From: Candidatus Magasanikbacteria bacterium RIFCSPHIGHO2_01_FULL_33_34
GTDB lineage: Bacteria; Patescibacteriota; Patescibacteriia; Magasanikbacterales; UBA922
NCBI GenBank assembly: GCA_001782825.1
Contig: MFPS01000007.1
Location: 148,487 to 212,486, forward strand
Direction: 5' to 3'
Length of the DNA stretch: 64,000 nt
Part shown: positions 3,405-58,905 of the stretch, piece after piece
Layout of the letters: each line of letters begins with the position of its first letter
Position numbering within the stretch: position 1 is the stretch's first letter
Notes under the pieces: generated by a model
What the model was told of the DNA's origin: nothing
The model's input: the letters and a program-made list of their open reading frames with translations, nothing else
Database searches by the model: none
Position numbers and translations under genes: made by a program

Positions 3405-3455
3405 ATTGATTATAATTTTATTTGTAAAAATTAAAAGTGTTATTTACAATTAAGT

Positions 3456-3555
3456 ATTAATTCCAATTATTTATTTTTACTCATTCTCGCCTCGGCTCTG
3501 AGGGTGATGCCTGTTGAGGCATCAAATCCGTAAAAATAAATAATTGGAATTAATA
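3456..3555 (-). repeat. Nested palindromic intergenic element, copy R1 (subfamily A); core 3481-3529 in minus orientation
   Basis: Arms ttaattccaattatttatttttac / gtaaaaataaataattggaattaa enclose the core. Core reverse-complement: GGATTTGATGCCTCAACAGGCATCACCCTCAGAGCCGAGGCGAGAATGA. Outer flanks homologous to R3/R7. Confidence 0.8.
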
Positions 3556-3590
3556 TAATCATAATTTAAAATACATATATAACTTACATT

Positions 3591-4706
3591 TTATTTAATT
3601 AAAACTTTATTTTTGCCAATCTCTATATCAAATTCTTGTCCATCACGATAAACGGCTACATTAAACTTATCAGGCGACAACAAAACTTGTCTGGCCAAAT
3701 CTTCTGTTTTTAATGGTTGATTTTGAATCCTAGTTATTACATCTCCAACACCAATAGTACTAGAAGTAACTTTTGTATTTGATTTATCAACATAAAATCC
3801 AGATACTCGCTTGGTTAGCCCACCATAATTCACATAACCATTAACCATATATCCTGTCCACTCCACCGCTCGATAATCTGGCGCGCCAGATTGTAAAATT
3901 GATGCATATTGACTATCCACTAACCATCCATAAATCACCCTACCATCATTATCCACCATTCCCATCATCTCCCCTTTTTCATTTACCAATATATTACCAA
4001 CTTCAAAATCATCTTTGATTAAATAAAATAATTGTGGTTGCCATATTTTGTATTCCAAATTATTCAAAGCTAAATCTTTTTCAAAATTATATTGTTGATA
4101 TTCTGTCAAAGACACCCCCCATACTATTTCATTGTTACCAATATCATTCCAATTTGCAAAAGAAATAAATGGGAAACCATCACCATCAAACTTTATATAA
4201 GTTAAATTACTTACAGTGTCCACAAATACTTTTTCAATATTGTAAATTGTTCCTTGATAATCAACCCCTTCCCAAAACTTTTCATCCCCTTTGCGATAAT
4301 CTGGCACATAAGCCACTGCCCAACCATCTGAACTAAACATAACTGACTGATATTTGTTGGCAGAATCAGCATAAAATTGTTTGTTTATTTTATCCCGAGT
4401 ATCATATACATACCAAAGCCTCTTTTTAACACTATTTAATACTGATAAATCGACCTCAACTACTTCAGTATTATTTGTTTTTTGTGAACTAACTAAAGTG
4501 GGATCAGGGACAAATGAAGGCGCAAACCAAACCAAAGTAGATAAAGTCAAAGAAACACTAGACAAGCCAGCTACAAAAACCAAAAACAAAAGCCACCAAA
4601 CTGATTTGAAAGTTCTATGTGCCTGTAAATCACAGGCTTTAGCTGGCAAATGTGGTGGACTATTTTCCATAATATATAATATATTTAACAGATTACTATA
4701 CACCAA
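3591..4706 (-). CDS. Membrane-anchored protein with C-terminal PDZ domain (no recognisable Ser-protease catalytic motif)
   Basis: N-terminal TM segment; C-terminal TIGVGDVITRIQNQPLKTEDLARQVLL…VAVYRDGQEFDIEI is PDZ-like; GDSGG motif absent. Confidence 0.5.
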   Translation of the reverse strand: MVYSNLLNILYIMENSPPHLPAKACDLQAHRTFKSVWWLLFLVFVAGLSSVSLTLSTLVWFAPSFVPDPTLVSSQKTNNTEVVEVDLSVLNSVKKRLWYVYDTRDKINKQFYADSANKYQSVMFSSDGWAVAYVPDYRKGDEKFWEGVDYQGTIYNIEKVFVDTVSNLTYIKFDGDGFPFISFANWNDIGNNEIVWGVSLTEYQQYNFEKDLALNNLEYKIWQPQLFYLIKDDFEVGNILVNEKGEMMGMVDNDGRVIYGWLVDSQYASILQSGAPDYRAVEWTGYMVNGYVNYGGLTKRVSGFYVDKSNTKVTSSTIGVGDVITRIQNQPLKTEDLARQVLLSPDKFNVAVYRDGQEFDIEIGKNKVLIK

Positions 4707-5519: not shown

Positions 5520-5968
5520 GTCTTCGCAAGATTTTCAATAATCTTTTGATTTTCATCTTTTAATTCTATAATTGCTGAAATAACTTTTGCTTTTAATTCT
5601 TGTTCACTCAAATCTGATTGCTCTAACAATCTATTAACTTCCAACATTTTCTGCAAATGCAAATCCATCAGATCATTTGGTACAAAAAAATCAAAAAAAC
5701 TATTTTCTGATATTAATACTATATCTTCTCTGCTTTCAACTTCCTCCAATCTAGCAATAATTCTTTCCATAGTTTTCTTGTATGAAGTAGTTATTTCCTC
5801 TTGGCTTCGCAATACTTTCACTTCTACATCTGTCTCTGAAGCCTTTTGGCCAGCATTTTTTGTGTCATTTAATTTGTTAAAGACAATCAACCCCAATACC
5901 AAAATTATAACCAAAATAACTGCAACTAAACCAATTTTTTGTTTTGAATTATACCTTGCCAAAAACAT
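5516..5968 (-). CDS. Single-pass membrane-anchored hypothetical protein
   Basis: ORF track; N-terminal TM (LVAVILVIILVLGLIVF). Confidence 0.45.
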   Translation of the reverse strand: MFLARYNSKQKIGLVAVILVIILVLGLIVFNKLNDTKNAGQKASETDVEVKVLRSQEEITTSYKKTMERIIARLEEVESREDIVLISENSFFDFFVPNDLMDLHLQKMLEVNRLLEQSDLSEQELKAKVISAIIELKDENQKIIENLAKT

Positions 5969-6053: not shown

Positions 6054-6500
6054 ATGCCAGTCTATTCAGTAAACAAAAAAGCCAAATTTGACTTCGAGCT
6101 CTTGGAGACTTTTGAGGCTGGCTTGATATTGAATGGGATTGAAGTAAAATCAATTAGAAGTGGCCAAGCCAGCTTAAAAGGCGCTTTTGTAACTTTTCAT
6201 AACGAGGCTGCTTTTATTACAAATTTTCACATTCCAAAGTACAAATTTTCTGGTAAAGTAGAAAATTATGAACCAGAACGTAGCCGAAAACTCTTATTAA
6301 ATCGCAAAGAAATCAGTTATTTAAGAGGAAAATCACAAGAAAAGGGCTTGACAATTGTCCCTATTTCACTGTATACTAAAGGTCGTCATATAAAAGTAGA
6401 ATTAGCCGTAGCTAGAGGTAAGAAAAAATATGACAAAAGAGAAGCTATCAAGAAAAAAGACTTAAAGCGAGAGCTAAGTCACAAGATAAAAGAAGGATAG
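6054..6500 (+). CDS. smpB: SsrA-binding protein SmpB
   Basis: Full-length SmpB-like sequence (…LILNGIEVKSIRSGQASLKGAFV…); tmRNA gene immediately downstream. Confidence 0.9.
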   Translation: MPVYSVNKKAKFDFELLETFEAGLILNGIEVKSIRSGQASLKGAFVTFHNEAAFITNFHIPKYKFSGKVENYEPERSRKLLLNRKEISYLRGKSQEKGLTIVPISLYTKGRHIKVELAVARGKKKYDKREAIKKKDLKRELSHKIKEG

Positions 6501-6518: not shown

Positions 6519-6926
6519 GGGGATGACAGGCTTCGATAGTCGGAGTCGTTATCTAAATGGGCATATCGAGCTTGCATATCTCGTAAAACTAGGCAAACTT
6601 TTACGTGCAAACGTATTAAGCCGTGCAAAGAACGCACTTGCTCGCGCATTTGCTGTTCCTTCATTGGCTCCTGTTGTTGCTTAAATTCAACAACCATCAC
6701 TCCCCTCATACTCGATAAGGGAATCGTGGTGTAAATCATCGAGCGTAAAAATATGTTCCTTCCGCGTGCATATTTTGACAATATAGCGGATATACCTTTA
6801 GGATAATTTTTGCTGTTTTTAATCTAAAGATTAAATCTCGTTTCGGCGAGACAAAAATCAGCTAATTATGTAGAACATTTATTTAACCCGATATAGACCC
6901 GAGTTCAATTCTCGGCATCTCCACCA
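6519..6926 (+). ncRNA. ssrA: tmRNA (ssrA)
   Basis: 5' GGGGATG pairs with 3' CATCTCC-A-CCA, including the G3·U70 wobble. T-arm cccgag/TTCAATT/ctcgg. Internal tag ORF ends …SLAPVVA-TAA. Canonical position after smpB. Confidence 0.85.
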
Positions 6927-7667: not shown

Positions 7668-7874
7668 ATGCCAAAATTAAAAACACATAAAGCAACGGCT
7701 AAAAGATTTCAAATAAAAAAAAGTAAAAAAGGAATCACAATCCTAAAACGCAATGATGGACAAGACCATTTCAACTCTAGAGAAAGTGGTAAAACAAAAA
7801 GAAATAAAAAAACAGACAATACCATGTCTAGAACAATGAAAAAAACTATTCTAAGAGCAATGCCACATAATTAA
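7668..7874 (+). CDS. rpmI: Ribosomal protein L35
   Basis: MPKLKTHKATAKRFQIKKSKKG… matches bL35 N-terminus; start moved to the internal MPKLK codon of the track ORF. Confidence 0.8.
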   Translation: MPKLKTHKATAKRFQIKKSKKGITILKRNDGQDHFNSRESGKTKRNKKTDNTMSRTMKKTILRAMPHN

Positions 7875-7987
7875 CCAGTTCATAGCCAATAGTTCATAGC
7901 CAATAAATTCAATATAACGATTTTGGGTTAATGAACACAAAAATAACTTCTATTGGCTCCGAACTATAAACTAAGAACTATAATAAT

Positions 7988-8332
7988 ATGCCAAGAGTAA
8001 AAAGAGGCGTTGGACACGTCAAAAAAAGACGTAATCTGATGAAAAGAGTAAAAGGTTTTGAAGCTGGTAGAAAAAATCTTATCAAACTTGCAAAAACTGC
8101 TGACACAAAAGCTGGGGCTCACGCATTTAGAGACAGACGTCGTAAAAAAGGAGAATTTCGTCGTGTATGGCAAATACGAATAAACGCTGCTGTCCGTGAG
8201 TTTGGATTAAACTACAGTAAATTTATCGGTGGATTGAAAACCAAAAACATAAAATTAGACAGAAAAGTTCTAGCAGAAATCGCCGCAACAGAACCAAAAG
8301 TCTTCAAAAAAATCGTAGAACTTGTAAAATAA
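7988..8332 (+). CDS. rplT: Ribosomal protein L20
   Basis: MPRVKRGVGHVKKRRNLMKRVKGF…FRDRRRKK… is canonical bL20; infC-rpmI-rplT order conserved. Confidence 0.95.
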   Translation: MPRVKRGVGHVKKRRNLMKRVKGFEAGRKNLIKLAKTADTKAGAHAFRDRRRKKGEFRRVWQIRINAAVREFGLNYSKFIGGLKTKNIKLDRKVLAEIAATEPKVFKKIVELVK

Positions 8333-8340
8333 CTTAAATC

Positions 8341-8420
8341 AAGACCCTCAGAATGTTTGGCGGAAGCCGGAGCCCCCCCTCCTTGGCTCCAGTCGCTACT
8401 GCCGAACATTTTGAGGGTCT
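8341..8420 (+). terminator. Long imperfect hairpin (~22-bp outer stem) with nested GC-rich hairpin, immediately after rplT; candidate terminator or attenuator
   Basis: aagaccctcagaatgtttggcgg … ccgaacattttgagggtctt followed by a T-run; inner ggagccccccctccttggctcc. Confidence 0.5.
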
Positions 8421-8447
8421 TTTTTATTTTTACAAATTTACAATAAA

Positions 8448-8547
8448 ATTAAAATATGATTCATTCTGAACGGATTTGTTTGGCACAACAGCCAAACACC
8501 TCGGAGCCCAAGGCGATAATGAGTGAAGAATGAATCATATTTTAATT
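8448..8547 (+). repeat. Nested palindromic intergenic element, copy R2 (divergent subfamily C); core 8472-8522
   Basis: Arms aattaaaatatgattcattc / gaatgaatcatattttaatt. Core GGATTTGTTTGGCACAACAGCCAAACACCTCGGAGCCCAAGGCGATAATGA. Apical hairpin GTTTGGC/GCCAAAC carries compensatory changes relative to GGTTGCC/GGCAACC of subfamily B. Confidence 0.8.
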
Positions 8548-8580
8548 TGTTGTAACATACATGATATAATTGTAATCACT

Positions 8581-9057
8581 ATGTTAAGAAAATTTGTCCA
8601 AAAATTAAACTATAATAGAAGCAACAGCATAACCAAAATAAAATTCAAAATATCGCCTGAAGCTAAAAGACTAGCTAAAAAATTATTTGAAAATAAATCT
8701 GAAAAATATAGACAAAATATTGGTGATGAGTTATTGGATGAACTAGCTGATATGGCAAAAATCGATATTGTTAACCTCAAGATATCCGACAAAAATCAAT
8801 ATCACAAAAAAAGAAATGGACGAGTATCATCCAAACAATATGGTTATTACAAACCCGGTAGCAAATACATCTACATACACAATAGAACTGCTGTCAGAGG
8901 TCAAATATTAGCTAATAAGACCTTCCTAGACACACTTCTACACGAATGGATGCATCATTATGATTTCTGTAAATTACATTTAAACTCAATCCATACAGCT
9001 GGATTTTATGCCAGACTCAAAGATCTCAAAACAAAACTGGGCTGGCTAGAATTATAG
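8581..9057 (+). CDS. Hypothetical protein with SprT-like HExxH zinc-metallopeptidase-like motif (HEWMHH…H)
   Basis: Track ORF 8530-9057; its first 17 codons lie inside repeat R2, so start moved to MLRKF (8581); motif TLLHEWMHHYDFCKLHLNSIHTAGFY. Confidence 0.4.
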   Translation: MLRKFVQKLNYNRSNSITKIKFKISPEAKRLAKKLFENKSEKYRQNIGDELLDELADMAKIDIVNLKISDKNQYHKKRNGRVSSKQYGYYKPGSKYIYIHNRTAVRGQILANKTFLDTLLHEWMHHYDFCKLHLNSIHTAGFYARLKDLKTKLGWLEL

Positions 9058-12421: not shown

Positions 12422-15400
12422 TTATTCTAAATCATCTGAATCACATACTTCCCAATACTGCGGTACATCACATGGCGTCGCAAAGGCTTCACATTCACTA
12501 TCTTTATTTTTTCTGGCATAAGCAATCATTTGTATGCAAACTTTTTTATCACGCACATCCCAATGATTTAATTCTCTATCTGGCAAAGCATTCTCATCAT
12601 CGGACTCAAAACTGAAACTTTCTAACATTCTTACAAATTTTTCAGAATTACTATTTATTTCCAAAATTGATCCGTCATCCATTTCAACTTCAACCACACT
12701 TATTTTGGCATCATTATCAGAAAATAAAACTTCATATGAAAATGCTGGCATATTATCAAGTTTTATACTTTGTTTGTCTAATTGTCTGACTGGATGATCA
12801 ACCAATTGCATAAATACACTTACATACTCACCAGTTTCTGAATTTTTGGCAGATACGCCATTTTTCCAATGTTCTACTGACCAAGTTGATGGATAATCCA
12901 TTGAAAATTTTGCAAATGAACTTTCACTCAATTTGCTCATTTTGTTTTCAAATTCTTCTTCTTTGGCTTCAAGCGCTCTTAGATTGTCTTCTCTGGCTTG
13001 TGCAGTGAATTTTTCTCTCAATTCAACTGGACTGATCTCACTCATTTTACTATCAAGTACTTTATTGTAGCCAGTTACATCAGTACAGCCAGCACCCAGA
13101 CTAATCAAACCAGCGCCCATAATACCTACCAAAACTACAATCCCAAGATGTTTTTTGCTAGTTTTACTACCAGTTTTACCAAGAGTTTTTTCTGTATAAG
13201 CTATCTTTTCTCGAGCAGACACAACTGTATCAGGATTCAAGGATATACTATCAATTCCCTCGCGTACCAAAAATTCTGCAAATTCTGGATAATCACTCGG
13301 TGCTTGTCCACAAATACCAATTTTTTTCTTGTATTTGTGAGCAACATGAATAACATTTCTAATCAAAGATTTTACAGCCTCATCATTTTCATTATATACA
13401 TGACTTACCAAAGCTGAATCTCTGTCAACTCCAAGTGTCAACTGAGTTAAATCATTGGATCCAATACTAAAACCATCAAAAATTTTGGCAAATTCTTCTG
13501 CCAAAATTACATTGGCAGGAATCTCGCACATCACATATACTTGCAAACCATTTTCGCCTTGCTTTAAACCAAATTCTGCCATAGTATTCAAAACTTTTTT
13601 ACCTTCTTCTGGAGTGCGACAAAACGGAACCATAGTAATTACATTGTCTAATCCCCATTCATCTCTTACTTTTTTGATTGCTTCACATTCCAACTTGAAA
13701 GCTGGTTTATATTCTTTTGAATAATAACGACTTGCTCCTCGCCAACCAATCATTGGATTTTGTTCTTTTGGTTCAAATTCTGTACCCCCAACCAAAGTAG
13801 CATATTCATTGGTTTTAAAATCACTAAATCTAATAATTACATCATTTGGATAAGCTGATGCCGCAATTCTACCTATTCCTTCAGCCAACTTGTCTACACA
13901 ATAATCAGTCTTTTTTTTGTATGCACGGGTAATACTAGCTATTTTCTTTTTAGCGACTTTGTCTTTTAATTTATTAAAATGAACTAAAGCAAGTGGATGA
14001 ATACGAATAAAATTTGTAAAAATAAATTCCTCTCGAGCAAGCCCAACACCATCATTTGGCAAAAATGACATAGCAAAAGCATTGTCCGGATCACCTACAT
14101 TCATCATTATTTTAGTTTTTGTCTTTTTTATATTTTTTATTTCAATTTTTTTAACCTCAAAAGGTAAAATTGTATTATATATATGACCTTCATCACCCTC
14201 AGCACAGCTGACAGTCACTGATTGATTATTTTTTAATAATTTTCTTACATTTGAGGCGCCTACAATTGCTGGTACACCTAACTCACGCGATACAATAGCC
14301 GCATGAGAAGTTTTACCACCTTGTTCAGTTACAATTGCAGAAGCAATACGCATAATCGGCTCCCAATCTGGATCAGTTATTCTAGTGACCAAAATTTCAC
14401 CTTTCTTAAATTTATTCATGTCTTTTGGATCTTCAATAATCCTCACTTTACCAGTACCAATTTTCTGACCAACACCAATACCAGTTGCAAGTAATTTACC
14501 TTTTTTCTTTAAAATATATTCCTCTACTACTGCATGATTTGATCTAGCTTTGACAGTTTCGGGTCGTGCCTGCACAATAAATAATTTTCCTGTCTGACCA
14601 TCCTTGGCCCACTCCAAATCTTGTGGCTTGCCATAATGTTCAGCAATTTGTACTGCCCATTTAGACAATTGAATAATTTCTTTGTCTGATATACAAAATT
14701 TATTTCTATCAGCTAACTTTACATTTTCTTGTATAGTACCTCCACCACTTTTTTTGTATACCAATTTTACATCCTTTGTACCCACTATCCGACTAATAAT
14801 AGACGCTTTACCTTTTTTTAAACCTTCTTTAAAAATATAAAATTGATCTGGTGTTACTCTACCTTTTACAACATATTCACCCAAACCATACGAAGCAGTT
14901 AATAATACCACCCCATCAAATCCAGACTCCGTATCTAATGAAAACATTACACCACTAGTAGCCAAATCCGATCGTACCATTTCTTGGACAGCTACAGACA
15001 ATGCCACATTCAAATGATCATAACCATGACCTTCACGATAAGAAATAGCTCTATTTGTAAACAAAGAGGCCACACAATCTTTAACTGCTTTCAATAACTG
15101 TTTGTTACCCACTACATTCAAATAAGTCTCTTGTTGACCAGCAAAACTAGCATCTGGCAAATCCTCTGCAGTAGCACTAGATCGTACAGCCACAGCTACT
15201 CCTGTTTTAGTATTTCCAGATAATTTTTTGTAAGCTTCCAATATTTCCTTCTCAATTTCTTTGGGGAATGTCGCTTCCAAAATCATTTCACGCACTTTTT
15301 TACCTACTCTTTCCAATTCTACTACATTTGTAACATCCAACCCTTTGATAGCAGTTTTTATATTCTTATCCAGACCTGTGCTTTTCAAAAAACTCCAATA

Positions 15401-18078: not shown

Positions 18079-18100
18079 ATTTATATAATTTCATGTTAAG

Positions 18101-18262
18101 TTGTAAGAATTGAAAACGTTATTTATAATTAAGCATTATTTCCAATTATTTGTTTTTACGGATTTGAGGCCCCAACAGGCATCACCCTCGGAGCCGAAGC
18201 GAGAATGAGTAAAAATAAATAATTGGAAAAAATGCGGTCATGATTGAAAGTATAAACAATAC
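18101..18262 (+). repeat. Nested palindromic intergenic element, copy R3 (subfamily A) with outer flanks; inner insert 18133-18232, core 18160-18208 in plus orientation
   Basis: Core GGATTTGAGGCCCCAACAGGCATCACCCTCGGAGCCGAAGCGAGAATGA. The outer 35+33-nt flanks recur contiguously, without the 100-nt insert, at 23945-24010. Confidence 0.8.
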
Positions 18263-18362
18263 TACTATATATTACAGTTAAGCTATTTTAACATTTTATA
18301 AATAAAAATAAAAGACCATAAAAGTCTCTTATTTAATTTGTTTTAAATTATATAAACAATAA

Positions 18363-23944: not shown

Positions 23945-24010
23945 TTAATTGTAAGAATTTAAAACATCATTTATAATTAATGCGATCGTGATTGAAAGTA
24001 TAAACAATGC
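23945..24010. repeat. Apparent empty-site paralogue of the R3 flanks (outer repeat without the inner insert and core)
   Basis: TTGTAAGAATTtAAAACaTcATTTATAATTAA|TGCGaTCgTGATTGAAAGTATAAACAATgCTA, ~90% identical to 18101-18132 plus 18233-18262. Confidence 0.6.
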
Positions 24011-24074
24011 TATTTTATCTTACAAATTAATTAACACTATTCATACACTATTATATAAAATTATTAACAATATT

Positions 24075-24638
24075 TCAAATCTTTCCTGAACCTAAAGGGT
24101 TATATCCATTAGTAATTTCATAACCATCCGAAAAGCCATCCCCATCTGTATCAGATTTAGTCGGGTCAGTTTTATATTCTTCCACTTCTAATTTATCCGA
24201 TATACCATCCCAATCAGTATCAAATTCTGTATTACTTATACCTAATCTTTCTTCTTCAATATCCAAAACACCATCATTATCCAAATCATCATCTTCCAAT
24301 CTCAAAGAGGTAACTCCTATATTTTGTTTTTGTACTTTTTCAATTGGCTTTTTAACTTCCACTTCTACGCTCGTATCCTCTGTCTCACTTATTTTTTTAA
24401 TATCTTTTTTTACAAAAATATTAGTAAAAAAAATTAAATATACTAATATACTTATCAAAATAATGATACCACTAATAATCAAAATCATTTTAAATTTTGA
24501 TTTTCTTTGTGGATAGTCAAGTTCATTGCTATATACATTTTGATCCACTATTTTATTGTCATCTTGATATTCATTCATCTTATATTTAATTAAATTATTA
24601 TAAATATTATGGTTCAATATATGGCGGATCAACCACAT
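24075..24638 (-). CDS. Single-pass membrane protein with TSP3-like Ca-binding repeats ending NGYNPLGSG
   Basis: TM MILIISGIIILISILVYLIFF; DDDLDNDGVLDIEEE…TDWDGISD…SDTDGDGFSDGYEITNGYNPLGSGKI; start overlaps the giant gene's 3' end by 32 nt. Confidence 0.5.
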   Translation of the reverse strand: MWLIRHILNHNIYNNLIKYKMNEYQDDNKIVDQNVYSNELDYPQRKSKFKMILIISGIIILISILVYLIFFTNIFVKKDIKKISETEDTSVEVEVKKPIEKVQKQNIGVTSLRLEDDDLDNDGVLDIEEERLGISNTEFDTDWDGISDKLEVEEYKTDPTKSDTDGDGFSDGYEITNGYNPLGSGKI

Positions 24639-27600
24639 CTATTACACAACGACAGTCTACATTACAAGTTTCAAGCGCATAACAACCAGCATTTGATCCA
24701 TCACATTCTTCACCTGGTGGTTGTATAATTCCATCACCACAATAAGCTGGTGGAAGTATAATCAAAGGCCCACATTCACAATTTGAATAACACTCTTCAA
24801 AGAAACCACAATTTAATGAACTACCATCACATTCCTCATTTGCTTCTCTACTACCATTACCACACACTGCATAGCCATCACAAGTATTAAGACAATTATT
24901 TTGACCTGGAATTGCTGGATCACATATCTCACTTCCATCAATCCTACCATCACCACAAATAGACAATTCACCAATAACTCCACCCGTCTGAATCTGTTCA
25001 GCACTAGTAGCAATTCTATTTAACGGCAATATCTCATAATCACCAGAAGTTGCATCTCTATCTATATTAAACAAATGCCAATATCTCGCTGCAGGATTTG
25101 AACTCTTTAGAGCATCTTCTATAACATAAGTAATATCTGGTCTAAATACAGTCCGGAAAGATTCTGCTCCGGCTGGAGTTTCTCTATATTCATAAACATA
25201 AACTTCCAAATCACTATCATCAAAATATGCCATCGGTACCCCACCGGCCACACTTTGTGCTTCTACAAATACTGCATACGGCCCATAATTCAATAAAGAA
25301 TTTGGCGCAGTATTGAGTGGTATATTTATGGTCATTGATTGTATAAAAGTATCTTCACCCTCATTGATATCATGCATATAAAAACCTTCATTACCAAGCC
25401 CCAATGGCCAAACTGTACAACTTCTGGTTGTATTTGCAAAATTATAGTCAGGAATCCAATAACCACCAACCAGTTCTGTACCGATACAGATCTGTTTTGG
25501 TGTTGCCATATTTCTTTGCATAAACCTATCAGTTCCACCCAAAGTATCATCAGCTGACAAAATACCTAAACCAAAATCTGTACCACCAAATTCTTGTGAT
25601 TCTTCTCTTGTCCATTTAAGCACAACCCTAATTTGTCCTTCTGGTAAAGCAGGAGAAACAATAAAATCATTCACAACAGTATTTAATTCATTATTAACAT
25701 CATAACTATATACAAATTCTGATTCTGGTGATGTTTCTAGACAATTTTCAGTTCCAGCTTGAGGTGTCAAACACATATAATAACTACCATTACAAGCATT
25801 GTCAGCGATAATGCCATTCAATATATCTGTTTCACCCCATGGATAAAATATATTACTAGGTACATACATAACATCAACCAAATCAGGTCCTGCATAAAAT
25901 TGCACTCTATTATTTACAAGAAGTGAACTACCACTATTAGTCAAAAAATATGGTCCATTAGGCTCTGTATAATCTCTAAAATAAAACTTTGCAAACAATC
26001 CATTAGGGTCTGTACCCCATTGCCCACCAGAATAATGCAAACTAATCATCGGATTTAATATTCTCAAACTAGGATCAATGCCACCGCTTGTTAGTCTCTT
26101 ACTTCCACACTGTATACAATTATTATATAAAAATCCACAACTATTTCTACACTCATAATTACCAGTCAAAGTAGTATAAGTCCCATTCTCTAAAGAATAA
26201 TTACCACTTCGTCTGCTACATTGATCTAATTCAAATGTGCCAGAATTTGTCACAATATAAGGATTTGGACAATTTGCACCAACACAATTAGGTCTAACAT
26301 ACTCACAAACCTCAGTTCTAGAACAAAAATTATCAACACAATACCCAGAATTACAATCTGTGTTAGCAGTACAATAACCAAGTGGTTGACAAAAACCTGC
26401 TGGGCTACAATAATTAGAATCACAATCAGCCACTTGAGTAGCAACAGTACACGGATCATTAATATTTCCACTACCACCATAATCTACCAATGAAATAACA
26501 TCAATATTCTCATTACCACAATAAGCATTTGGTTCAATATAAAGTACCTCTCTACAATCCCATGAACAAAAGTTACAGCCTTGGTTGTAACCAGGGACAC
26601 ACTGGACACCATTTATACCATCACCTCTATCACATACTTCACCAGCATCAATATTACTATTACCACAATTACCTAAATCAGGCGTAACATTATCTACAGG
26701 CGCAGAAGCTTCATTTCTACAATTATTTGCACAACCATCTCCGCTAATATTGTTACCATCATCACATTCTTCGGCTGAAGTACATACTCCTGCACTACAA
26801 TTATTTGAAAAACATTGACTATTATTTAAGCAGATTGCACCACTATTACCAGTATGCAAAATTCCATCACCACAACGAGGACCTAATTGTTTACAATTTG
26901 CTGAACAACTATTAGAAGGTAGAGCAAATGTTGGTGGTGTTAAATATGCACCATTGTTAGCTCCTATATCACAATATTCAACTGGTGAACAAACATTCAT
27001 AGCCAAACAATTTCTATTTGTTCCACAACTTGTAACACAAGCATTAGGATTACCGGTACAATTTACATTATTAAATGCGCAATAACTATTTACAACATTA
27101 TCACCACAAAAACTGGCACTAAAAGTACACATAGCCGAACAATTTCCAGGTGTACCATTTAATGCCCCATCATCACATTGTTCTAATCCATCTACCCTAC
27201 CATTACCACACAAAATATCAACATCACAGCCACTATCCTGCCAATTACACGAACTATTACAAACTCTAGCTAAAGTACCCGAAATAGGTACACCATTCAC
27301 ATCTACTGCACAAGCATTTAATGTGTCAACCAATTGGCCAGGAGGATCACACTGTTCAGTACCATTTACAATCCCATTACCACAAGAACCAGACAAAGGT
27401 GATTCTGTACTTCCAGACACACCACACATAGAACCAATCTGAAAATGACTAACATCTATAAATGAACCCAAATCAGACAATCCAAAATATTCTGGACGCC
27501 CATAAATCATATAATCATTTGCTACATCAGGTCTATACTCTAATACTGATGAAACTGCTGGACAAATAAATCTACTATTCACTTCATCCCAACAGGTCTG

Positions 27601-30600
27601 ACTATCTACAGTCACACATACCTCCCCAGCACCAGCACAATCAACATCTGTTGAACAGAGTTGTTCAACTCCATCAACCAGACTACCTGGAACATGACAA
27701 TAATTACAAGTTGTCCAACGATTTATCGGATCAATTCCTACCCCACCACCAATTTCTTGACCCAAATTACCCCAAGATGGCCACAATGAACGAGTTCTAC
27801 CTGGTATATATGTACCAGCACGCAACTGTGGCGCTTCTGAACCAAAATCAACATATCCATTCATGGCTACTTGCGCATTGCGAATAGTAATGAATCTTGA
27901 CCAATCTCTTCTCATCTTTGTCTGATCTGCAGAACACATACCAGTTCCACCACCCAAAGGATTACCCAATAAATCCCTACAATCAAAATCAGTACTACAA
28001 GAAATATCTACCGCATTTTCACAAAACAAATCATTTGAAATATTAGAATTAAATTCCAATGAATTAATCAATTGTTCAAAAACATCATAAGTATTTTGTT
28101 GTGCATTTTCATTTATACTAAATACAAATATATTATTGTATAGCTCACCTAATCCAGGTCTATTAGCTGCCGATATATAATAATTACTACCATTAGTCAT
28201 AGCTTCATAACCATCAACTGAAATTTGATTGAATCCAGTTGGTTCACCAATTTTTCTCCTAAACCATTGAGTTAATGTTTCCTTTTCTAAAATAGTTGGT
28301 GCACTGTCTGTTAGAAAAACTTGCAAACCAATCACATCATCATTTACAGAATTGAAGAATAAAAAGCGTTTCAAATTTTCAGCATCTGGTAAACCAGAAG
28401 CTATATTAAATACAAATGGTCTTAAGTATGGCAAATCGTCTACTACATTACCAACCAAACCACTGTCGGCACAATAACTCATTTCAAAATTAAAGAAATC
28501 TCCATTTACATTACTCGTTCCAAGCATAGTTGAACCATCAAATATTCCAGCAGTCGTACCATCATTATTTCCAACTTCATCTTCAAATGGGAAATAATCT
28601 CTTGGTGGCCAAGGGTTTTCACAAAAAAATGAAACTAATTCGGCTGTGCCTGTAAAGGTTTGTCCAACTTGACTATCTACCAAATCTGTATCCACCAAAA
28701 CAGTTGCATGCGCACCAGCAGTTCTAGAACCCTCAAGTTCTGTAGAAGCTATAATTCTATTTGGGATATTTCCTGTAGTTATTATATCTGGATCAATTGT
28801 AAATAAAGTATCAGCTGATGGAGTCCAAAACCATTCCCAATCATATACACCCGGAATAGGACTAATCAATTGTCCACTGGTTGATTCAACAACAGCTGTA
28901 AAATTATAATCAGTATTTGGTGTATCATAAAAATAACCAGCAGGAATAACATTAATACTATTAATCTTACAAACATCATCTCCAGTTCTGAACATAAAAC
29001 TATCGTCTATTTCTCCAGTTCTAGCCACAACATTATTTAATGGACTTCTAATACCTACACCACGAACATCTTTTATACCATTATTACCCCCTTTTAATAG
29101 CACTGTATAATAAGCATTTTGTTCAAGTAAATTATTGAGATAAAAATCAACTCTACTCTCTATTACATTGCCATCAACATCAGTGGTTTTATTTACCAAT
29201 GGTAAACCACTAAATAAATTCTGTCTGCACCAAGAACCAACAGTAGCGACATTTGTAATAGAAGCTTTAGCCTGACCACCAGTAGCCCAAGTAAAAAAGC
29301 GTTTTATTGTGTTCCAAATATTTATAAAAATAGAATCACTTTTTTTATTATTATTTTCATATGCCAAAGTCCCATCAATATCAGAAGTAATATCTACACA
29401 ATCAACTGGTGGGGCTACCTCATAACCTCTTGCTATCCAAACATTATTCAACAAAGTTGTTTCATTGATATTACCATCAAAAGTCACTGATACTAATGAA
29501 TTCAAACAAACCACATTTGGATCCAATATACCAGCACCATCATAAGGATATTCATCTACTCGTTCTGGTCTATCATAACAACAAGAATTTGATCCTACAC
29601 CCAAAGTATTATTAACATTACCGCGACAATCATTATGATTATTAGCCAAATCTGGTTGTTCATACTCAGTAAAACCACAAGCCAAAGCATAATCTGCCTC
29701 ATCAGATAATTGAGTTTGTTGCGCAGGAATTAAATCTGCTAATTCACCACGAACTCGCACAATATTTGACTCTATCAATGTACTCATCAATTGTGTTCCA
29801 GGATCCAGCAATAACCTAGTGCCAACTGATCTTACAGATTGAACAGGATTTTGACCTGGTATGGCAAAACCAGCCATTTCTGCAACGGTATATTCACACC
29901 AACCATACTCTCCATCACCAACAACACCATCTCCACAAAGTGATGGAATAGTATATCTATCAATTGAAGACCCGTGTAAAGTACAATCTGGTTTACAACC
30001 TTCTTGTGTATTAGGATCACAATAAAATGGAGCTGGAATAACTGAATCACAAATATTTTGTAATAAACAATTTGAAGAACAAAGATTATCAAAATCAGCT
30101 ACAAATATTCCTGGAATTACAGTCCCATTATCACTAGCTGGGACTCCAAAATCTCCATCAAATAAATGAAATTGTCCACCAATTATTTCACACTCTTCTC
30201 CAAATTCTAATTCTCCATTTCCACATTGGCTAACCGCTTGTCTACATTCATCAGTATCCTGCCAAGCTGATCTATCATCACACCATTCTTGTACCAAACC
30301 AGTTCCAATATGTAAACAATTACTAGTACAAGTCCTACCAAGCACCTCTCCATTCAATCCTGGTTCACAATCCTCACCAACTGTAACTTCTGAACCATCA
30401 CAAATAGGTTGACCAGTTGAAGCTTCCTCAATATCTCTAGTTGAACCAATATGTAAACAAGTATTAGAACATCCAACTCGTGTTGATGATGTTAATCCTG
30501 GATCACATTCTTCACCCAAATTTGTTTCTAAAATACTATTTCCACAAGTTGCATTAGTGTTTCCCGGTCGCAAACAATTGATAGAACAAGAGTCACCAGC

Positions 30601-46031: not shown

Positions 46032-46538
46032 ATGCCCTTCTCTCTTATAAGTGCGATTGCAAAAAATAACTGCATTGGCAAAAACAATAAACTTCCTTGG
46101 AATATCCCCGAAGATTTAGAGCATTTCAAACAATTAACTCTCGGCAAAAATTGTATTATGGGCCAAGCAACCTTTGAATCAATCTTGGGTTATCTTGGCA
46201 AACCACTACCAGGCAGGCAAACAGTCGTATTAACTTTAAACAAAGACTATACTGTACCTAAGGGCGTAAAGATATTTCATTCAATTGAAGATGCTTGGGA
46301 AACTCTCAAAGATGAAGATAATTTTGTCTGTGGTGGAGCAACAATTTACAAATTAACCATAGACAAAGTTGATACTCTATATATTACTCATGTTCATATG
46401 GAAGTTGATGGTGATGCATTTTTTCCAGAAATTGATAAAAATATTTGGCAAGAAGTAGAAAGAGAAGATCATGAAAAATTTTCATTTGTAACCTATAAAA
46501 AAGTTCATAGTTCAGAGCCAATAGCCAATAATTCATAA
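46032..46538 (+). CDS. folA: Dihydrofolate reductase
   Basis: ISAIAKNNCIGKNNKLPWNIPEDLEHFKQLT… DHFR signature. Confidence 0.9.
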   Translation: MPFSLISAIAKNNCIGKNNKLPWNIPEDLEHFKQLTLGKNCIMGQATFESILGYLGKPLPGRQTVVLTLNKDYTVPKGVKIFHSIEDAWETLKDEDNFVCGGATIYKLTIDKVDTLYITHVHMEVDGDAFFPEIDKNIWQEVEREDHEKFSFVTYKKVHSSEPIANNS

Positions 46539-46903
46539 TCAATCAGATTATTAATACATACAGAGAACTCATCGTATGGCAAAAATCAATAGAATTAGTA
46601 ATAGAAATTTATAAATTAACAAACTTATTCCCTACAGAAGAAAAATTTGGTTTAATTTCACAAATGAAAAGATGTTCAATTTCAATACCATCAAATATAG
46701 CAGAGGGATATGCAAGAAAAAATAAAAAAGAAAATGCTCATTTTATAAATATATCATTTGGTTCTGCAACAGAACTTGAAACACAAATTATTATTTCTAA
46801 AAAATTAAATTTTATTAACAACAATCAATGGGAAAAAGTAGATCAACTTTTGCTTGAAGTTTTACGGATGTTATATAAATACCGACAAGCACTTTATACT
46901 TAA
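46535..46903 (+). CDS. Four-helix-bundle protein (23S rRNA intervening-sequence protein family); no canonical ATG at the conserved N-terminus
   Basis: In-frame …YRELIVWQKSIELVIEIYKLTNLFPTEEKFGLISQMKRCSISIPSNIAEGYARK… matches the family; only ATA/ATC/ATT codons between the upstream TAA (46529) and the conserved VWQK. Confidence 0.55.
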   Translation: MINQIINTYRELIVWQKSIELVIEIYKLTNLFPTEEKFGLISQMKRCSISIPSNIAEGYARKNKKENAHFINISFGSATELETQIIISKKLNFINNNQWEKVDQLLLEVLRMLYKYRQALYT

Positions 46904-46928
46904 TTCTATTGGCTATGAACTACCAACT

Positions 46929-47615
46929 ATGAACTACAAAAAAGGATTATTCATAATGCTTGAAGGAACAGATGGTTCTGGAAAAACCACTCAAACCCAA
47001 TTATTACTTGATCATATAAAAAAAGAAGGTAAAAAAGTAAAAGAAATAAGCTTCCCCCAATATGGCACACCTAGTGCCTCAATGGTAGAAAAATATTTGA
47101 ATGGCGAATTTGGTACAGCTGAAGAAGTCGGGCCATACCGTGCTTCTATTTTTTATGCAATTGATAGATATGCCCATAGTCAACAAATAAAAAAATGGTT
47201 GGAAGAAGGTTATATTGTAATCGCCAATAGATATGTCGGATCAAATATGGGACATCAAGGTGGCAAAATAAAAAATGAAATAGAAAGAAAAAAATACTTT
47301 GAATGGAATTATAATCTTGAATACAATATATTTGGGATATCCAAGCCTGATATAAATATTATACTGCATGTTACACCAGAAATCTCACAACAACTTGTCG
47401 ACAAAAAAGAGACAAGAGACTATATAAAAACTGACAAAAAAAGAGATATACACGAAGATGACCTCAACCATCTTAGAGATGCTGAACTGGCATATTTACA
47501 AATAGCCAAATCCTTTCCAGAATTTCACCTAGTAGAATGCGTTGAAAAAAATGAAATATTACCATCTGAAACTATTCACAAAAAAATATGGGGATACATA
47601 CAAAAATTTATATAA
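46929..47615 (+). CDS. tmk: Thymidylate kinase
   Basis: MLEGTDGSGKTTQ P-loop, DRY motif; start placed at MNYKK. Confidence 0.85.
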   Translation: MNYKKGLFIMLEGTDGSGKTTQTQLLLDHIKKEGKKVKEISFPQYGTPSASMVEKYLNGEFGTAEEVGPYRASIFYAIDRYAHSQQIKKWLEEGYIVIANRYVGSNMGHQGGKIKNEIERKKYFEWNYNLEYNIFGISKPDINIILHVTPEISQQLVDKKETRDYIKTDKKRDIHEDDLNHLRDAELAYLQIAKSFPEFHLVECVEKNEILPSETIHKKIWGYIQKFI

Positions 47616-48436: not shown

Positions 48437-48560
48437 TTGAATAGGCCCTATAATTTCTTTGAAAACCCTTTAATACAGGGCTTTTCATTTTTTAGCTTAA
48501 ATGATAACATATAGATAAATGCATAAAATAAATTAATTATAAAATATTTAACAAACAGAA

Positions 48561-48680
48561 TAATTAATAATTAGAGATTATTATGAGCGGATTTGGTTGC
48601 CACAACAGGCAACCACCTCGGAGCCATAGCGAGAATCCTGCCGGCAGGCAGGGAGCGAATGATAATCTCTAATTATTAAT
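48561..48680 (+). repeat. Nested palindromic intergenic element, copy R4 (subfamily B) carrying an extra CCTGCCGGCAGGCAGG palindrome
   Basis: aattaataattagagattattat-GAGCGGATTTGGTTGCCACAACAGGCAACCACCTCGGAGCCATAGCGAGAAT[CCTGCCGGCAGGCAGG]GAGCGAATGA-taatctctaattattaatt. Confidence 0.85.
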
Positions 48681-48733
48681 TTCTATTTCAGATTATAAAT
48701 TAATTAATACTCCTCATAAATGAATAATAATCT

Positions 48734-50306: not shown

Positions 50307-50411
50307 ATAATTAATGATTAAAGATTATTATGAGCGGATTTGGTTGCCACAACAGGCAACCACCTCGGAGTCAAAGCGAGAATGAGAGAATAATAATCTT
50401 TAATCATTAAT
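50307..50411 (+). repeat. Nested palindromic intergenic element, copy R5 (subfamily B)
   Basis: aattaatgattaaagattattat-GAGCGGATTTGGTTGCCACAACAGGCAACCACCTCGGAGTCAAAGCGAGAATGA-gagaataataatctttaatcattaatt; shares 25 nt of right-hand extension with R4. Confidence 0.85.
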
Positions 50412-50573
50412 TTCTATTTCAGATTATAAATTAATCCACAGCTATACAGTTGCATCAATTACAATATACTGATAAACTGAATCAAACTATGAAAAAATTA
50501 AAATTACAGACAATTGATTATAAACAATATTAGAGACTTACCATCCCGAAAGGGGTGGTATTTTTTTGAAAAT

Positions 50574-57460: not shown

Positions 57461-57507
57461 TAAAAATATAATAGTATTGTTTACACTTTTACAACGACCG
57501 CATTATT

Positions 57508-57625
57508 TTCAATTATTTATTTTTACTCCCTGCCTGCCGGCAGGCAGGATTCTCGCTTTGGCTCCGAGGGTGATGCCTGTTGAGGCCTCAAATCCGTAAA
57601 AATAAATAAACAAATTAATGCTTAA
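57508..57625 (-). repeat. Nested palindromic intergenic element, copy R7 (subfamily A, core in minus orientation) with the extra CCTGCC(TGCC)GGCAGGCAGG palindrome
   Basis: rc core GGATTTGAGGCCTCAACAGGCATCACCCTCGGAGCCAAAGCGAGAAT[CCTGCCTGCCGGCAGGCAGG]GA; arms aattatttatttttac / gtaaaaataaataa; outer flanks homologous to R3. Confidence 0.8.
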
Positions 57626-58788: not shown

Positions 58789-58891
58789 AATTAATAATTA
58801 GAGATTATTATGAGCGGATTTGGTTGTCACAACAGGCAACCACCTCGGAGCCACAGCGAGAATGAGCGAATGATAATCTCTAATTATTAAT
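58789..58891 (+). repeat. Nested palindromic intergenic element, copy R6 (subfamily B)
   Basis: Identical arms to R4; core GAGCGGATTTGGTTGTCACAACAGGCAACCACCTCGGAGCCACAGCGAGAATGA (apical stem C-to-T gives a G·U wobble). Confidence 0.85.
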
Positions 58892-58905
58892 TTAACAAAT
58901 TTATT

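Follow-up and report, generated by a model that had tools for sequence, protein, structure and literature searches.

A mobile, MITE-like palindromic repeat of Candidatus Magasanikbacteria whose core hairpin is probably selected to fold on one strand

The window, by which we mean the whole 64-kb stretch of Candidatus Magasanikbacteria DNA analysed here, contains seven copies of an intergenic repeat, all of them among housekeeping genes (the genes near the copies being DUF5663, rplT, nrdR/ftsZ, gatB, carA, pyrC and pyrD; Table 1). The conserved box CCTCGGAGCC occurs seven times at up to one mismatch in the whole window as compared to 0.38 occurrences expected, and with a covariance model derived from these copies the window yields exactly seven matches, at 71-92 bits, with no other sense-strand match above 21 bits. 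Relative to shuffled sequence the window copies fold with z scores of -3.7 to -9.6; for the copy that follows rplT (R2), from which this analysis started, the predicted fold has -44.4 kcal/mol and z = -8.6. The canonical element is 167-176 bp in size and contains no ORF. Copies are oriented both ways relative to their flanking genes, no pattern links their orientation to the gene-strand switch near 42 kb, and no conserved gene neighbourhood was found around them. The original prediction knew six copies (R1-R6), and all stems it quoted (R1, R2, R4, R5 and R6) are present as described, but the set was incomplete: two copies had been passed over (18160-18206, plus strand, and 57549-57595, minus strand), both of which carry an uncompensated G·A mismatch in the apical stem. 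Since Patescibacteria/CPR genomes are very small (about 1.2 Mb), seven copies in 64 kb among core genes are a notable load, and a repeat placed among ftsZ, gatB, carAB, the pyr genes and rplT could shape operon expression in these organisms.

Further features of the window may be recorded here. A tmRNA gene (6519-6926, plus strand; 118 bits with Rfam, not reported by ARAGORN) adjoins smpB (6054-6500). Another short repeat and its inverse (AGTTCATAGCCAATAG and CTATTGGCTATGAACT) occur at 7870-7975, 46495-46545 and 46900-46935, that is, upstream of rplT and around the genes at 46.5-46.9 kb, and may represent an operator or leader motif. Directly after rplT (8340-8425, plus strand) lies a distinct hairpin, long and GC-rich, with a T-run behind it, in which GACCCTCAGAATGTTTGGCGG pairs with CTGCCGAACATTTTGAGGGTC below the apex GGAGCCCCCCCTCCTTGGCTCC. 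It resembles an unusually long intrinsic terminator and has a GGAGCC motif in common with the repeat core, and it scores only 9.9 bits with the covariance model. Finally, an ORF of 3499 amino acids with internal CxxC-like repeats (24607-35106, minus strand), whose orthologues in relatives are annotated as T4SS_pilin, Big_5, LVIVD and Laminin_G_3, presumably encodes a giant surface protein of the kind common in CPR genomes.

Table 1. Copies of the repeat in the window, parts of copy R2 and layout of the canonical element
Feature	Position	Strand	Location	Score (bits)	Description
Copy R1	full element 3422-3588; hairpin 3455-3555; core 3483-3529	-		84.8	complete canonical
Copy R2	hairpin 8446-8548; conserved core 8472-8522	+	gap between rplT (7988-8332) and next gene		
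R2, P1 5' arm	8446-8471	+			AAATTAAAATATGATTCATTCTGAAC; pairs with 8523-8548
R2, box GGATT	8472-8476	+			same in all 16 distinct copies
R2, apical hairpin P2	8477-8498	+			TGTTTGGC / loop ACAACA / GCCAAACA
R2, conserved boxes	8499-8520	+			CCTCGGAGCC and (A)AGGCGATAAT; nearly invariant among copies
R2, GA internal-loop residues, then P1 3' arm	8521-8548	+			GTGAAGAATGAATCATATTTTAATTT
nrdR/ftsZ copy	full element 18101-18276; hairpin 18133-18235; core 18160-18206	+	nrdR/ftsZ	86	complete canonical
Derivative without hairpin	23949-24024	+			76 bp; two terminal units joined; arms and core absent
Copy R4	48562-48681; core 48589-48636	+	upstream of gatB	83.1	
Copy R5	50309-50412; core 50336-50383	+	between gatB and carA	91.4	
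Copy 57496	57496-57612; core 57549-57595	-	between pyrC and pyrD, antisense to both	71.4	
Copy R6	58789-58892; core 58816-58863	+	downstream of pyrD	92.3	
Canonical layout, outside					6-bp target duplication on each side; terminal inverted repeat TTGTAAGAAT...; 20-29 bp arm
Canonical layout, core					CGGATT-[P2 hairpin]-(C)CCTCGGAGCC-NNN-GCGAGAAT-(optional GC hairpin)-GA; then complementary arm and second terminal repeat
Canonical element ends					TTGTAAGAAT...ATTCTTACA

The outer helix of copy R2 (P1) comprises 24 Watson-Crick pairs and a tandem G·A/A·G. It encloses a core built of the apical hairpin P2 and the boxes on its two sides, which were correctly predicted to be nearly invariant. 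P2 itself reads GTTTGGC (8478-8484) / GCCAAAC (8491-8497) in R2, GGTTGCC/GGCAACC in R4 and R5, GGTTGTC/GGCAACC with one U·G pair in R6, and GATGCC/GGCATC around the loop TCAACA in R1 on the minus strand; copies 18101 and 57496 have GAGGCC/GGCATC with the G·A mismatch. This stem, first taken to be 7 bp long, is really a helix of 8-9 bp, as the final TG of GGATTTG forms pairs with the CA that precedes CCTC. Two copies on contig L074 even exchange these basal pairs, from TG/CA to CA/TG (U-A and G-C become C-G and A-U). GGATTTG is thus a conserved box, as had been said, but is not single-stranded over its whole length. The remainder of the junction is less well defined. The ATT of GGATT may pair with the AAT at 8518-8520 (P1b, 3 bp), a helix that never varies in any copy, and a 4-bp helix P3 (CTCG/CGAG) is possible within 8499-8520. 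P3 shows zero double changes and 4 of 56 broken cells, which fall in two of its four pairs (one at 47-64, three at 50-61); in the L074 copy at 8860-8943 the 3' box reads GTGAG instead of GCGAG, and by this C-to-T change the fourth P3 pair goes from G-C to G·U. Because P1b and P3 never covary, this fold of the junction is a guess.

Some copies contain an additional GC hairpin, inserted after GCGAGAAT: CCTGCCGGCAGGCAGG in the 48562-48681 copy and CCTGCCTGCCGGCAGGCAGG in the 57496-57612 copy. The optional hairpin, CCTGCC(TGCC)GGCAGGCAGG, stands directly after GCGAGAAT at 48637-48652, at 57573-57592 (minus strand) and in the L074 copy at 14292-14395, and its three carriers belong to different P2/arm subfamilies in two genomes. 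A hairpin of different sequence occupies the same site after GCGAGAAT in two Nitrospirota-like contigs (L037 and L043).

The organism falls within Candidatus Magasanikbacteria by the FtsZ encoded beside one of the window copies. Four other Magasanikbacteria lineages or contigs supplied nine more distinct copies from beyond the window, and Nitrospirota-like contigs a related form of the element. Two groups of loci, Set A and Set B, were found by a pattern scan of metagenome contigs, and further contigs were fetched through neighbouring proteins; the pattern scan of genome contigs gave 23 matches, all of them chance matches in coding DNA, and that of viral contigs gave zero. Set A stems from a lineage of 45% GC that belongs to Magasanikbacteria by its DnaK. 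Its core and P2 stem match those of copy R2, whereas its outer arms are unrelated in sequence and yet still complementary to each other. Set B lies on contigs whose acyl-CoA ligase is closest to Nitrospirota. It retains GAGCGGATTT, CCTCGGAGC and GCGAGAATGAGCGAGA as well as the tandem G·A in the arm; its P2 is a domain of about 60 nt closed by TTTTGCC/GGCAAAA, its terminal repeats differ (CCACATTATTCATAAA), and some of its copies have the optional hairpin after GCGAGAAT. One of the Set B contigs (L037) also carries, at 1120-1197 on the minus strand, a c-di-GMP-I-GGC riboswitch (63.4 bits, above the gathering score), which is unrelated to the element. Among the fetched loci, a lineage resembling RIFOXYC2_FULL_40_16 (L057) has a copy with the P2 stem GTCCCGCC/GGCGGGAC, L074 has three copies, and L067 (533-615) holds one more copy of the window's own genome from outside the window, with P2 GATGTC/GACATC. 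The window differs hardly at all from the close strains L061 (99.975% identical over 19,949 nt) and L067-L072, and the loci shared with L067-L072 add no new polymorphism, since their covariance-model bit scores equal those of the window copies. The asymmetric, largely unpaired core of about 50 nt is retained in two phyla and in lineages whose GC content is 33% and 45%. On the sequences compared this is unusual for a MITE, in that the internal core and the fold are conserved rather than the stem sequence or, across phyla, the termini.

The larger set of copies bears directly on whether the hairpin is kept as a structure. The nine P2 stem types are 98.4% paired as compared to 63.5% with shuffled partners, a value that none of 20000 shuffles attained, and each of the 7 basal positions occurs with two or more kinds of Watson-Crick pair. 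These figures were counted by script from anchored hairpins, because MAFFT and RNAalifold alignments mis-register P2, whose stems differ in length; from the automatic alignment RNAalifold did not recover P2. For the structure as a whole, 89.9% of the cells are paired in a model-fitted alignment of 14 distinct copies, which mis-registers P2, against 71.1% after shuffling and 39-50% with slid partners. Eighteen pairs are altered on both sides (12 of 15 in the outer stem and 6 of 7 in P2), and no shuffle of 500 reached this number. Even copies 48562 and 50309, whose arms are almost the same, differ there by one or two base changes, and these are compensated on both sides. P1 and P2 thus both contain the covariation-supported pairs by which structured RNAs are recognised in general. 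The compensatory changes first noticed in the apical stem are therefore borne out through many double substitutions and extend past the window copies to the long outer stem, of which the original prediction made no use, and the stem positions do not mutate independently in the larger set, where pairing lies far above that of the shuffles.

The pairs that are not of the Watson-Crick type are informative about the strand. Counted over 16 distinct Magasanikbacteria copies, with copy 50336 not scorable, the outer stems contain 352 Watson-Crick, 12 G·U, zero A·C and 17 other cells, and about half of these 17 are the recurrent tandem G·A. One arm position runs stepwise from A-U (3500 copy) through G·U (18190 copy and L057) to G-C (L067 and L074), and a second from U-A (L026) through U·G (L028) to C-G (L033). 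As the copies are related by descent the independent events are few, perhaps about ten G·U sites; we estimate the probability that some ten independent sites are all G·U and never A·C at near 0.001 if transitions strike the arms equally. The 12 G·U against zero A·C indicate that the fold matters on the GGATTTG strand specifically. They do not tell which chemistry that strand has. The U·G pair of R6 had been called compatible with RNA but not with DNA, a distinction that does not hold: among DNA mismatches G·T is the most stable, and DNA tolerates it well, so that the wobble pattern speaks for strand specificity and not for strand chemistry. Within the range of the copies aligned, the kept pairing and the G·U-only transitions argue for selection on a single-stranded fold of the GGATTTG strand and against a purely neutral duplex repeat.

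But could the pairing not result from the mechanics of mutation, with template switching or gene conversion within the palindrome copying one arm onto the other in a functionless selfish element? Long palindromes are unstable, and traces of rearrangement are indeed found in this family. Between the 3422 and 18101 copies both flanks are co-linear while the core between the arms is inverted, so that the whole core of the 3500 copy is turned round relative to its flanks. In the L057 copy (5580-5600, minus strand) the P2 loop reads CGTT, which reverse-complements the AACG of the CCAACG and CAACAG loops in other copies and may be a loop inversion of the template-switch type, and the hairpin is cleanly missing from the 23949 copy. 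Replication template switching creates and repairs stems and may bring about compensatory changes in one step (PMC8794818), and since the core inversion of the 3500 copy shows rearrangement of the palindrome at the DNA level, a non-selective route to compensatory changes is open here (PMC8794818). However, perfect stems hit by random transitions would be expected to show G·U and A·C equally, which the counts given above contradict, and the stepwise series from A-U through G·U to G-C are present. Moreover, copying from arm to arm cannot explain an unpaired, asymmetric core of about 50 nt that is kept across lineages and two phyla. We therefore regard mutation mechanics as a quite improbable source of the pairing. 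With its one-strand G·U intermediates on the one hand and its whole-core inversion on the other, the family offers a clean natural case for weighing selection against template switching.

The copies move or have moved. Terminal inverted repeats (TIRs) of the form TTGTAAG...CTTACA(A) bound the copies at 3422-3588, 18101-18276 and 23949-24024 and are also found in L067, L074 and Set A, and several copies have mutually inverted flanks in common outside the hairpin, with TTGTAAGAATT..GTTATTTATA at one end and TATAAAC..CTTACA at the opposite end. The 3422-3588 copy has the ends TTGTAAA...CTTACA and the target duplication TTTTAT (3416-3421 and 3589-3594), the 18101-18276 copy has TTGTAAG...ATTACA and GTTAAG (18095-18100 and 18277-18282), and the L067 copy and the Set A copy in L028 are flanked by perfect 6-bp duplications as well (AATAAT and ACTTAC, respectively); by our estimate from base composition a perfect 6-bp duplication arises by chance with a probability of about 4e-4 per copy. 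The 23949-24024 derivative retains a duplication that matches at 4 of 6 positions. TIRs and duplications were seen in the canonical subfamily only; neither is recognisable in the 8446-8548, 48562, 50309 and 58789 copies.

Comparison with relatives reveals filled and empty sites. One orthologous site exists in three states, being empty in L056, occupied by the hairpin-less 23949-24024 derivative in the window and by a full copy in L057; the derivative has either lost the palindrome or is a carrier that was never given it. The copy between nrdR and ftsZ is missing at the orthologous gap of both L056 and L057, relatives with 85-86% FtsZ identity. Two closely related strains of Set A likewise differ at the gap between dnaK and the gene after it, which is filled in L042 (2870-3030) and empty in L028 (5010-5035, 18 nt); the insertion in L042 is bounded by an 8-bp direct repeat, AATTATTT, and the inserted copy has no right terminal repeat. 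Copy load varies too, with none in 21 kb of L056, 14 kb of L062 and 10 kb of L063 and three in 22 kb of L074; at 76-86% FtsZ identity, relatives have zero copies in 10-21 kb. An autonomous partner with the same TIRs, or extra TIR pairs, were not found in the window or the fetched loci, and Pfam comparison of about 30 ORFs shows no transposase, reverse transcriptase, HUH enzyme, Y1 enzyme or integrase encoded in the window. A small, non-coding, multi-copy element with TIRs, target duplications and presence/absence polymorphism has the features of a MITE, and the best reading is that of a non-autonomous, MITE-like family in Candidatus Magasanikbacteria (Patescibacteria/CPR).

These observations weigh heavily against what the original prediction had implied, namely that the copies are a host family of small-RNA or ribozyme genes, multi-copy but not mobile and with a promoter of their own. 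Two covarying helices, a promoter-like site directly upstream of several copies and an optional hairpin of variable sequence at a fixed position, as is typical of structured RNA families, would all suit such genes. Against them stand the TIRs and target duplications, the empty orthologous sites in relatives of 85-86% FtsZ identity, the polymorphism between close strains and the lack of a conserved neighbourhood. Moreover, no Rfam 15 family was found on any copy at the gathering threshold, and only chance-level matches appeared at E up to 10 for the window copies and up to 1 for the Set A and Set B loci, so that no family, all self-cleaving classes included, is matched at either kind of threshold. 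We consider host RNA genes very improbable. The prediction of a functional RNA or single-strand structure instead of a neutral repeat was right insofar as a fold on one strand appears to be under selection; the opposition itself was a false one, as the element is a mobile repeat as well.

A fold on one strand might also act in single-stranded DNA, as the recognition structure of a transposase of the HUH/Y1 type or of a recombinase resembling integron integrases, or as a signal for single-strand priming. This would explain why core and structure are conserved while the arm sequences vary; a DDE transposase, which reads sequence, would need the opposite. The strand-specific wobble fits single-stranded DNA as well as RNA, several copies are without recognisable TIR or duplication, and copies lie in both orientations relative to genes. 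Yet the canonical copies do carry TIRs and 6-bp duplications. Such ends are the hallmarks of double-strand cut-or-copy-and-paste transposition by DDE enzymes, and elements of the IS200/IS605 type are without them. With HUH, Y1 and integrase genes absent from the window and copy orientation unrelated to the gene-strand switch near 42 kb, a role in single-stranded DNA seems unlikely to us.

We therefore favour, at a probability of roughly 0.6, the reading that the hairpin at 8472-8522 forms the apex of a copy of a mobile and non-autonomous palindromic repeat whose GGATTTG strand is selected to fold, most likely as RNA, to the benefit of the element. RNA is preferred here because TIRs and duplications imply double-strand transposition, which has no obvious single-stranded DNA stage at which selection could act. 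The transcript would arise either from a sigma-70-like site in the left terminal repeat, TTGTAA-N17-TATAAT, or by read-through from a host operon. A protein would then bind or process its long hairpin with the conserved junction. Candidates would be an RNase that acts on double strands, as happens with the hairpins of other bacterial MITEs, or a factor encoded by the element; the persistence of the element, and no host gene, would gain.

At 18101-18129, 10 of 12 positions agree with the sigma-70-like consensus; 5-7 nt separate the end of this promoter-like site from the hairpin base in the 18101, L067, L057, L074 and Set A copies. Promoter-like hexamers are frequent in the AT-rich DNA here (6-7 per 400 nt where 2.8 are expected), the left terminal repeat has its mirror image on the right (TTGTAA-N17-TATACT), and the antisense copy at L074 8860-8943 has no canonical site; for these three reasons the site is weak as evidence of transcription. 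Intrinsic terminators, that is, a GC stem followed by a T-run, were found at none of the copies.

The conserved unit may be smaller than the element. In a more speculative extension that we hold to be somewhat unlikely, hairpin and core together form a module, a new class of structured RNA (for example self-processing or protein-recruiting), which rides on varied carriers and has crossed phyla because its fold drives propagation. The carriers would be the TTGTAAG-type MITE in Magasanikbacteria, an element of the CCACATTATTCATAAA type in the Nitrospirota-like contigs, or none that is recognisable. If the core is indeed a functional RNA shared by elements of Patescibacteria and Nitrospirota, it would be a new mobile RNA module.

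Literature searches on MITEs in CPR/Patescibacteria and on the motif strings of the element found no relevant report. Several identities were considered and rejected. The lactis-plasmid RNA (RF01742), the only Rfam model with a weak match to copy R2 (25.4 bits, E = 0.024), is likewise a long hairpin with a CUGAA(A)CG / GAGUGAAAG internal motif; however, its core does not resemble that of the element, the score falls far short of the gathering value of 70, and what matches is the arm sequence of this single copy, with no such match in the 48540-48700 copy. Neither by eye nor with Rfam do hammerhead, hairpin, twister or hatchet cores match, and the mini-ORF that starts at the ATG in GAGAATGAG spans 3-5 unconserved codons. 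Palindromes of the REP/RAYT kind or derived from IS200/IS605 were dismissed on account of the TIRs and 6-bp duplications of the canonical copies and the absence of a Y1/HUH gene from the window. Integron attC sites resemble the element in conserving structure over sequence, in strand-specific folding and in conserved unpaired bases. They differ in that their boxes lie at the base of the stem (R''/R') below a variable apex, whereas in the element apex and core are conserved and the stem varies; mixed orientations, housekeeping neighbours, the absent integrase and the apical position of the conserved part led us to reject this identity.

The closest parallels are with intergenic palindromic repeats of other bacteria, among them the Correia elements (CREE/NEMIS) of Neisseria. 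Like the element the latter are non-coding, multi-copy and intergenic, about 100-170 bp long, and have TIRs and short target duplications; they form long hairpins when transcribed, have promoter-like ends and lie in either orientation among housekeeping genes. Correia elements duplicate TA, and their conserved 26-bp TIRs themselves form the stem. The element differs from them in its 6-bp duplication, its subfamily-variable arms, its asymmetric conserved core of about 50 nt and its host phylum. ERIC/IRU sequences of Enterobacteria and Vibrio share with it an imperfect palindrome of about 125 bp, transcription with neighbour genes (predicted for the element), occurrence in distant hosts, stems kept by compensated changes and optional internal insertions at fixed positions; in contrast to the element, ERIC shows no clear signature of TIRs and target duplication, and the sequences are unrelated. 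Effects of ERIC on expression and mRNA stability are documented. By analogy, then, the element behaves like the bacterial intergenic MITEs and palindromic repeats of which Correia and ERIC are examples.
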